Shown piece by piece: positions 1-3,000 of a DNA stretch of 64,000 nucleotides; the first letter of the stretch is position 1; the number at the start of each line of letters is the position of its first letter. Location: positions 1 through 64,000 of the IMG/VR virus record IMGVR_UViG_2695420521_000002, one strand, 5' to 3'. A program made the position numbers. This DNA comes from a virus (lineage: Duplodnaviria; Heunggongvirae; Uroviricota; Caudoviricetes).

Positions 1-3000
1 GTCGCCCGAATTGGTCAACATGAAGTATGTGCTTGAACCATCGTTTCGGATAAAGAATCCATAGTTGCCATAGGCAATACGAAGACCATTCGCCGATTTG
101 GAAATAATCTCGCCAGCAGCCGTTAAACCGCCAGTAAGCGTGCCTCCGGTTGTTGGTAATGCACCTACATCAGCAGCAGTCGGTTTATTTTTAGTGTTAT
201 ATGCTCTGCGCCATCCGGGGGAATAAGCTGTGCCATTAAACACATAGATAAATTCCGCATTAGTGAGTGCGCCAGAGACACTTGTCGTCGTGGCTGTTGT
301 TATTCGAATGGTGTAATAAGTTGCACTGTGGCTGAATACTTCTATCACCGCCCCCGCCAGTGGAATAATGCCGCAGCCTGTTTCACTGTCTGGTATGGAG
401 GCGCTGTCAGCGTATGCCCAGGCACAGCGTGCCACCCATGCTTTTGTATTGAAGGCACCATTATTCTGCAATATCGTCACTAACTGAGCCGTTGTTATTG
501 ATGCACCATTACTCCCTGTGCCTAACCAGCCAGTTGGAGATGCCGGGCAACCAATATTTGCTGGTGACAGCGAAATATTAGCCGTTCCGTCAAATGAAAC
601 CCCATTAATGGTGCGTGCTGTTTGCAGTTTTGTGGCTGTAGCTGCATTGCCGGTAGTGCTCTGATTGCCTGTTTTATTCACGCCCGGCAGGTCGATGTTT
701 GCGGTGCCATTAAATGAAACACCACCAATAGTTCTTGCCGTTTGTAATTTCGTTGCAGACGCCGCGTTTCCGGTTGTGTTCTGGTTGCCCGTGGTATTTA
801 CACCAGGGATGGAATCCTTCGATGTGTAGACCTGCGCCCACTCTGACCAACTGGCTGTATCAGTATCTCGTCGCGAACGTACATGTACAGGTGCATGAGC
901 GCCACTTGTACCGCTCCAACCTATGAACAACTCACCTTCACCAACTGCCGTTGCGCCCTTAAGATGAAGCACATTCCCGTAAGCAGAAGGATAGCCGTTG
1001 TTGTACGCCTCATACATCTGCAATCCAGTAGCAGCACCTTGTGTTGTACCGGTGAGCGCAGTAACACGCCCTCTGGACGTAATTGTTGGTATCGAAATGT
1101 CCACAGAACCATCAAACTTAACACCGTTGATGTTTCTTGCCGTCGCAAGTTTTGTCGCGGTAGCAGCATTCCCCGTGGTGTTCTGGTTACCTGTTGTATT
1201 TACACCTGGAAGATTGATATTGGCCGAGCCATCAAATGCCACACCGCCAATCGAGCGTGCTGTTTTCAATTTCGTCGCGGTGTCGGCATTCCCTGTCAGC
1301 GCCCCGGTGATCCCGCCGTTGAAAGTCTGGCGTGCACTCCATGTGTTAGCCGTGCTCAACAGGGGGATCTTTTCACCGCTGGTACCGAGTTCTCTTAAAC
1401 CAAGGTTTAGGATTGAAATGATGACGCCGGAAACTTCTTATAAAGCGTGGAAACAGCCACATCATAGATGATTGCAACCTGCTTACGGGGGATACCCTTC
1501 TCCAGCAATCGCCGCATTTGCTGCCATGTTTCTTCTTGGTATTTAGGCCGACGCCCACCTATACGACCTTCTGCGCGAGCTACATCAAGTCCAGCGCGTG
1601 TACGTTCAACGATAAGCTCACGTTCCATTTCTGCCAGCGCACCCATTACGTGAAAGAAAAAGCGCCCCATTGGTGTACTGGTGTCGATGGAGTCAGTGAG
1701 ACTCCGGAAGTTAATGCCTCTGTCACGCAGCTCTTCCACCAGCACAACTAAGTGACGCATGCTGCGCCCAAGACGATCTAACTTCCATACGACCAGGGTG
1801 TCACCTCTGGAAAGCATACGGAGAACCTTTTTTAACCCAGGGCGTTCAGCCTTTTTGCCGCTCGCCTTGTCCTCAAAAATTAGCTCACATCCTGCGCTTT
1901 CAAGGGCATTTCGTTGCAAAGCAGTGTTTTGTTCATTTGTTGATACGCGTACATAGCCTATTAGCTATTTTCTGCTCACTATTGTTATTTATAGCAAGCT
2001 GCGGATTTTAATTAACAAAACCAGTGTGTGTGGAAATCACAAAGTACATACCGTTTCCCAATGATGTTTATTTAATCATTAAGGAAATAGTTATGTTTGA
2101 TCTAAAAATCATTTTCATATCCATCTTTGGCGGAATGCATTCGTTTCTGAATGGGGTTCGTGAAAAACGTTACGAAGCATCATGCAGGCAATTGCTGGCC
2201 GAGTGTCTTGCTGCCGTACTTGCAGGCTTTATAGGCATGTGTTTCGCGGAATATAAGGGTATGGATGAAAGTCTTCAGAATTGCGTGACTCTTATTTGCA
2301 GCATCAATAACAGGCTCATTTTTGAAAGGTTACAAAGGCTTATCGATTCGTACCTCAATAGAAATGCCTCTTAAGCAACAAATGACCGGTTGAGAAGTTA
2401 CTTTGCATACCATTCCCTCCTGACAACGTAGGAGGGAACTTGTGCTTGACACACAGGAATTAGCTCCAGTTGCTATTGCGCTCCTGCTTTCAGTAATTGG
2501 TGGGATAGGCACGTTCCTGATGGATGTCCGAGACGGTCGCCAGTCTGGCAATTTGTTGGGATTGGTTACGGAGATCTTTGTTGCAGTGACAGCTGGCGCG
2601 GTGGCGTACCTATTGGGGCAACACGAGGGCTGGGAGTTATCAATTACGTACTTAATGGTAACGATAGCCAGCAATAACGGTCATGAGGTGATTTCAGGGA
2701 TGAAACGAGTGAATATCGATAGCATTCTGAATGTTCTTACAAGTTTGGTGAAAAAGGGAGGTGGGAAATGATTGGCTGGGGTGTATGCGTTCTTGCGTTA
2801 GCCTTAGCCGATCGCTATTTGCTAAAACGCAAGGACATCACGCATTTAGAACTTGGTGATGTGGAAATTAAACAGGGCTTCATCCGGGTGCCGTTCAAAT
2901 ACCGGTCTAAATTCCCGTTTTTGCGCGGCGCAACGGTCAGATATTGGATCCGCGATGTTCAGAAGCCGACGACAGTGATTGAAGGCGAACAACGTTGTCT

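Follow-up and report, generated by a model that had tools for sequence, protein, structure and literature searches.

We have found that the Cin/cix tail-fibre switch of a P1-like phage-plasmid carries a recent deletion of one base in the start codon of its invertase gene, and this deletion has probably left the element with essentially no active Cin and no autonomous flipping. The window, as we call the whole 64,000-nucleotide stretch of DNA that was analysed, corresponds to bases 1..64,000 of NCBI contig CYGK01000014.1 (GCA_001286565.1, 99,399 bp). It is part of a P1-like (Punavirus-type) phage-plasmid, in which the plus strand holds lydC, lydA, lydB, hdf/odaE, darA, ddrA and ddrB from about 2.0 kb onwards, in P1 order, and cin lies on the minus strand immediately to the left of lydC. 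Alignment supports the reading of cin as a gene for the Cin invertase that has no usable canonical start; the loss of the Cin protein, together with the loss of autonomous inversion, is what we infer.

The minus strand from 1980 to 1941 reads AGTGAGCAGAAAATAGCTAATAGGCTATGTACGCGTATCA, and the Cin frame in it is AAA TAG (1967..1965) CTA ATA GGC TAT GTA CGC GTA TCA, or K * L I G Y V R V S. When this is aligned with the relatives, a TAG at 1965..1967 (minus strand) replaces the ATG that is expected there. The base that was deleted, compared with all relatives, is the T of the cin ATG, between window positions 1966 (A) and 1965 (G), such that the wild type AAAATATGCTA stands against AAAATA-GCTA in the window. 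In the alignment with P1 and the two nearest plasmids, U2501 and pAVS0578-B, the wild type GAGCAGAAAATATGCTAATAGGC, which P1 and all the relatives share, becomes GAGCAGAAAATA-GCTAATAGGC in the window. The claim is not a statistical one, as it concerns one departure from a start codon kept in every full-length relative examined. An earlier note on this DNA had proposed that the invertase lacks its ATG, and the alignment to the cin genes of related phages bears this out, as P1 and the relatives all have ATG where the window has TAG in a frame that is otherwise open and like that of P1 Cin. The note had also guessed a one-nucleotide change from AAAATGCTA; it had the kind of change right, both being one-nucleotide indels, but not the detail, as it was the T of the ATG that was deleted from GAGCAGAAAATATGCTAATAGGC. 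A phase-variable repeat at the lesion was considered and rejected, given that the context is ATATG and that a single T was lost rather than a repeat unit.

The remainder of the gene is that of an intact invertase. The cin frame is open from codon 2 (Leu, CTA 1964..1962) to the stop TAA (1409..1407), that is over 1407..1964 on the minus strand, with the codon for Ser9 (TCA) at 1941..1943. Compared with residues 2-186 of P1 Cin the product is identical at 184 of 185 positions, the sole difference being A129V. Pfam finds in it the two domains of a small serine recombinase, Resolvase (PF00239, 1.7e-50, residues 2-134) and HTH_7 (PF02796, 1.8e-18, residues 137-180), and it matches the crystal structure of Gin, 3UJ3, at 1.5e-87. 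Against the U2501 allele, which is the nearest intact one, the cin of the window differs by one third-position change and the deletion, and this, along with the near identity to P1 Cin, argues that the lesion is recent. Of the ten differences between the window and P1 cin, nine are at third codon positions, a bias that points to purifying selection on cin until very recently.

The expressed protein is where the catalytic serine of the YVRVST motif would be missing: the codon for Ser9 is present, the ATG is destroyed and the first canonical start lies downstream of Ser9. This start is a TTG at codon 17 (1917..1919, minus strand), which has no Shine-Dalgarno-like sequence upstream and would give a product of 170 residues without Ser9, so the earlier statement that the first usable start falls past the catalytic serine holds as well. 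The signals for expression were mapped by aligning the P1 cin annotation, and they place a Shine-Dalgarno-like GAG at 1975..1977 (minus strand), 8 nt upstream of the lost ATG, and the -10 hexamer TAAAAT of the predicted promoter P1cin, still intact, at 2005..2010 (minus strand). The only near-cognate start before Ser9 is an in-frame ATA (Ile3, 1959..1961, minus strand), 13 nt from the GAG. Read-through by amber suppression from a tiny in-frame reading frame that the deletion created (GTG AGC AGA AAA TAG) was judged negligible, as it has no Shine-Dalgarno sequence and would require a suppressor host. Automatic gene calls on the damaged cin disagree with each other: the NCBI contig has a protein of 184 residues from the ATA (1407..1961, minus strand) and the Logan contig, introduced below, one of 136 residues that starts at an ATG within the gene. 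Because the Resolvase and HTH_7 families are matched by either call, the pseudogene is easily overlooked in annotation.

The DNA sites of the switch that can be seen in the window are in good order. The 26-bp crossover site cixL, TTCTCTTAAACC AA GGTTTAGGATTG on the plus strand, occupies 1390..1415 with its core AA at 1402..1403 and is identical to the published 26-bp site (PMC3241671). The 20-mer core of the P1 cixL has one exact match in the window, at cixL. The cin stop codon falls in the cin-side half-site, as the earlier note had observed, and the P1 annotation likewise ends the cin coding sequence inside cixL. A putative recombinational enhancer, identified by homology with P1 31678..31749, lies in the 5' part of cin at 1878..1949; these 72 bp are identical to those of the alleles with intact cin (U2501 and the E. 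albertii plasmid) and differ from P1 at three positions.

To the left of cixL is a silent alternative tail-fibre segment (an Sv'-type cassette) belonging to the invertible C segment. It covers 1..1413 on the minus strand, with 471 codons free of stops up to the contig start, and contains the tail-fibre trimerisation domain Gp34_trimer (Pfam, 6.8e-25). It is 95% identical to residues 451-923 of the expressed 1,149-residue S protein of a flipped relative, CP057845.1 (pRHB13-C03_3), and the same LGLRELGTSGEK frame runs across the crossover in the window and in CP057845.1, as for an in-frame alternative C-terminus. The relatives lose collinearity exactly at cix (query position 588, which is window position 1413). 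Among the relatives with intact cin, the same segment adjoins cin in about 16 records and is fused to Sc at the cix breakpoint in more than 25. These comparisons indicate that both arrangements exist among the relatives with intact cin and that in them the switch flips. By homology they also mark the window segment as a true alternative end of the fibre that is silent where it lies, with cixL linking it to the 3' end of cin rather than to the constant part of gene S.

The cixR of the relatives is ccAATACCTTGGTTTAagag, at the Sc/Sv junction. Within the 64-kb window there is no second cix site and no inverted-repeat copy of 1..1500 elsewhere, and cixR, the constant part of gene S and the host chromosome all lie outside it. 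The second crossover site had been expected to the left of the window, which is not what the contig offers, since its first base, within the C segment, is window position 1.

The system in the window is the P1 Cin system itself and not a relative of it. In P1 (NC_005856: cin 31660..32220, cixL 32215..32234), as in the window, the order is lydC, a divergent cin, cixL and Sv'; the 26-bp cixL is identical and has the cin stop inside it, the enhancer homologue is in the 5' part of cin, and the silent alternative C-terminus of S reads away from cin. There are three differences. The window has lost the start codon through the one-nucleotide deletion; its variable fibre cassette is unlike the P1 Sv' and instead matches E. 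coli IncY P1-like plasmids at 83-95% DNA identity; and its relatives have, compared with P1, a repeat of about 152 bp beside cix as well as a second, internal inverted repeat of 191 bp. The likeness to Mu Gin/G, e14 PinE/P and Salmonella Hin/H (Din-family, Fis-dependent) is one of protein family and of the 26-bp site consensus with its AA/GA core, and in Mu and e14 it extends to the swapping of tail-fibre C-termini. These are nevertheless different elements; in the window, as in P1, cixL borders the invertible segment and contains the cin stop, whereas in Mu and Salmonella the invertase gene is placed differently relative to its sites.

The repeats of the relatives also mark the limits of a difference between two sister plasmids, pRHB13-C01_3 and pRHB13-C03_3 (CP057856.1 and CP057845.1, both 95,217 bp), which differ by a swap that takes in only a 1.5-kb fibre cassette. 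This cassette is bounded by the cix-proximal 152-bp repeat and the internal 191-bp inverted repeat, and the central U/U' region has kept its orientation. A swap of the cassette alone implies two exchanges, cix by cix and one at the 191-bp repeat, and thus four possible fibre combinations instead of two. The window contig starts inside the equivalent of the internal 191-bp repeat.

The deletion was not seen in any other element. In a short-query megablast search with an 81-nt probe centred on the lesion, the allele was absent from 224 plasmid and 194 E. coli genome records, and every full-length match to the probe carries the extra base (98.8% identity, 82 nt vs 81). Exact-match scans of the viral, genome and metagenome collections found the mutant 34-mer nowhere, while in viral contigs the wild-type 35-mer occurs 28 times. 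The mutant-specific product of 184 residues was found nowhere beyond the source contig. To judge from these searches the deletion is private to this element, a recent change in a system that is well known. A metagenome contig with the same 136-residue gene call was examined as a second carrier and rejected, because it keeps the ATG and has Ser9 changed to TAG. In this contig (ENA ERZ27235559, k119_10139) the 3' part of cin is nearly identical to that of the window, a cluster of substitutions occupies the first 60 or so nucleotides of cin, and the lydC side is divergent. Its origin may lie in an independent knockout, in recombination or in a chimeric assembly.

Deletion of the T turned the cin ATG into TAG and leaves the next canonical start past Ser9. 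We propose that the element, without active Cin at any meaningful level, would be unable to flip its own tail-fibre segment. As the visible DNA parts (cixL, the putative enhancer within cin and the 471-codon fibre segment) are intact, the segment should still be a competent substrate, and it would stay as arranged unless an invertase arrives in trans or the inverted repeats recombine. Recombination of the latter kind, as homologous recombination at the 191-bp repeat, may reshuffle the fibre genes without Cin. Because cixL and the enhancer homologue are intact and the Din-family invertases are trans-acting, the switch can be called locked only conditionally. The earlier note had the segment frozen in the non-expressed orientation. 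The silent position is confirmed, with the segment joined to cin at cixL and expressed in relatives, but frozen it would be only if no other invertase is available.

This brings us to the question of whether the lesion has any phenotype. A host invertase of the e14 PinE type, a Mu-like Gin or a Min of the p15B type might work on cixL and cixR at normal or at least useful rates, which would make the loss of Cin inconsequential; we consider this an unlikely state of affairs, though one with several points in its favor. P1 cin, Mu gin and Salmonella hin reportedly complement one another, as Kutsukake and Iino in 1980 and Iida et al. in 1982 are said to have found. Action across the Din family is documented for a number of pairs, in that PinE inverts the G segment of Mu and the H segment of Salmonella, Fin inverts H, and PinQ, PinR and PinE all invert the P segment of e14 (PMC12529663). 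One consensus is common to the Din sites (PMC3241671), and both cixL and the enhancer homologue are intact in the window. On the other side, the 64-kb window contains no other serine recombinase that could serve as a second invertase. The NCBI draft contig moreover reads straight through cixL and the repeat of about 150 bp in a single arrangement, which is a weak hint that one orientation dominated in the sequenced culture.

The loss of Cin may also be incomplete. Weak initiation at the in-frame ATA (Ile3) would yield a Cin that is two residues shorter at the N-terminus and retains Ser9, and inversion would then be rare instead of abolished. The ATA is in frame and upstream of Ser9, and in E. 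coli reporters AUA initiates at 0.1-3% of AUG, with UAG at 0.007% (bioRxiv 10.1101/063800). Inversion of the wild-type C segment is infrequent anyway (bioRxiv 10.1101/2022.07.24.501295), so little enzyme may suffice, and the 184-residue gene call of the source contig begins at this ATA. A computational gene call, however, is no evidence of translation. The sole Shine-Dalgarno-like element, the GAG, is at an unfavourable spacing from the ATA, a better-placed ATA (1966..1968) that is out of frame with cin would compete for initiation, and the truncation takes away part of the first beta-strand (LIGYVRVS). Taken with these points, residual activity from the ATA seems to us quite improbable, and essentially no active Cin is the reading that we prefer.

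Loss of cin has occurred before in elements of this type. Natural P1-like phage-plasmids with a defective cin include pSvP1, pTZ20_1P and pJIE250-3 (Venturini et al. 2019, PMC6906374), and the annotation of phage RCS47 splits cin in two ('cin part 1/part 2'). They resemble the window in belonging to Enterobacteriaceae, in having the invertase gene inactivated and in a presumed loss of the tail-fibre switch. In them cin has been lost through truncation, IS-mediated deletion, frameshift or a nonsense codon, often along with damage to the C segment, whereas in the window one base of the ATG is all that has gone and the visible switch DNA is intact. The window may therefore represent the earliest stage of the process of cin loss. 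We also found that 8 of the 28 P1-like loci in IMG/VR with the wild-type cin start keep only a 5' remnant of cin, its first 19-79 codons. In two of these eight, one of them a contig of 103,445 bp, the opposite strand nearby encodes another full-length invertase, which shares about 60% identity with Cin. Since natural cin loss in P1-like plasmids is already known, the allele of the window is a new but trivial route to it and a case of ordinary pseudogenisation; what distinguishes it is that nothing else has decayed. There is a small chance that more is involved, and that selection repeatedly favours the loss of cin as P1-like phage-plasmids become domesticated, with autonomous host-range switching given up, cix and the enhancer kept, and the fibre either fixed for the current host or left to the invertases of co-resident prophages. 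The window would then show the very first step.

The remaining concern is whether the deletion is real. Run ERR178190 has an independent Logan assembly that matches the window at 100% identity over 1377..14029 (12.6 kb) and has the same deletion, the two assemblies being probably from one read set, which makes the lesion known at the level of the consensus. The deletion is thus not an artefact of one assembler. Compared with the E. albertii relative, about 55 other conserved genes have no frameshift, the only disruption among them being an IS element that interrupts one gene, and no gene in the comparison other than cin has lost its start; the absence of frameshifts indicates a clean assembly and rejects widespread sequencing error. 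That the isolate truly has an ATG and a working switch, and that the missing base is an error of sequencing or consensus, we hold to be highly improbable: a single-base indel in one isolate, in a gene that has not decayed elsewhere, is indeed how such an error would also look, and the shared read set leaves room for a systematic read error or a sub-clonal variant, but two different assemblers made the identical call, the ATATG context is not a homopolymer, the other conserved genes tested are free of frameshifts, and the contig breaks at repeats in the manner of short-read assemblies, in which consensus indel errors are rare.

Several other features of the phage-plasmid were recorded along the way. 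A 1,310-bp IS3-family element (10301..11610; orfA/orfB, HTH_Tnp_1, rve), which shares 96% identity with E. coli copies that carry the annotation 'IS3 family transposase', sits in the 3' part of a gene of the DUF2829 / Tad2-like (Thoeris anti-defence 2-like) type, and the overlap of the junction alignments suggests a 3-bp target duplication. A cargo gene for an IS605-family TnpB of 402 residues (13985..15193, plus strand) is shared with relatives. A chaperone-usher fimbrial cargo operon at about 19100..24720 (plus strand) encodes a PapB-type regulator, a major subunit of 175 residues, a PefC/AfrB-type usher of 805 residues, a chaperone, minor subunits and DsbA; the operon is shared with P1-like plasmids of E. 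albertii, with a major subunit that is only 55% identical. A 435-residue protein with a SIR2_2 domain is encoded at 27154..28461 (minus strand), in a region that has no counterpart in the E. albertii relative, and its gene may serve in defence as part of the load of the phage-plasmid. At 40910..44545 (minus strand) there is an inverse autotransporter of 1,211 residues, intimin/invasin-like, with IAT_beta and several Big_1 / Invasin_D3 repeats; it adjoins phd-doc, at a place taken in the E. albertii relative by a type I restriction-modification operon (hsdMSR). Finally, a further cargo product, a Sulf_transp (YeeE/YedE-type) membrane protein of 387 residues, is encoded at 55971..57134 (plus strand) and is absent at that place in the E. 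albertii relative.

For annotation, these findings mean that cin of this element is best labelled a start-codon pseudogene, and no gene should be called from the ATA, the TTG or an internal ATG. The window adds one more data point to the frequent loss of cin in P1-like plasmids. Induction of this prophage would presumably yield virions with essentially one fibre type, which bears on predictions of host range and transduction.
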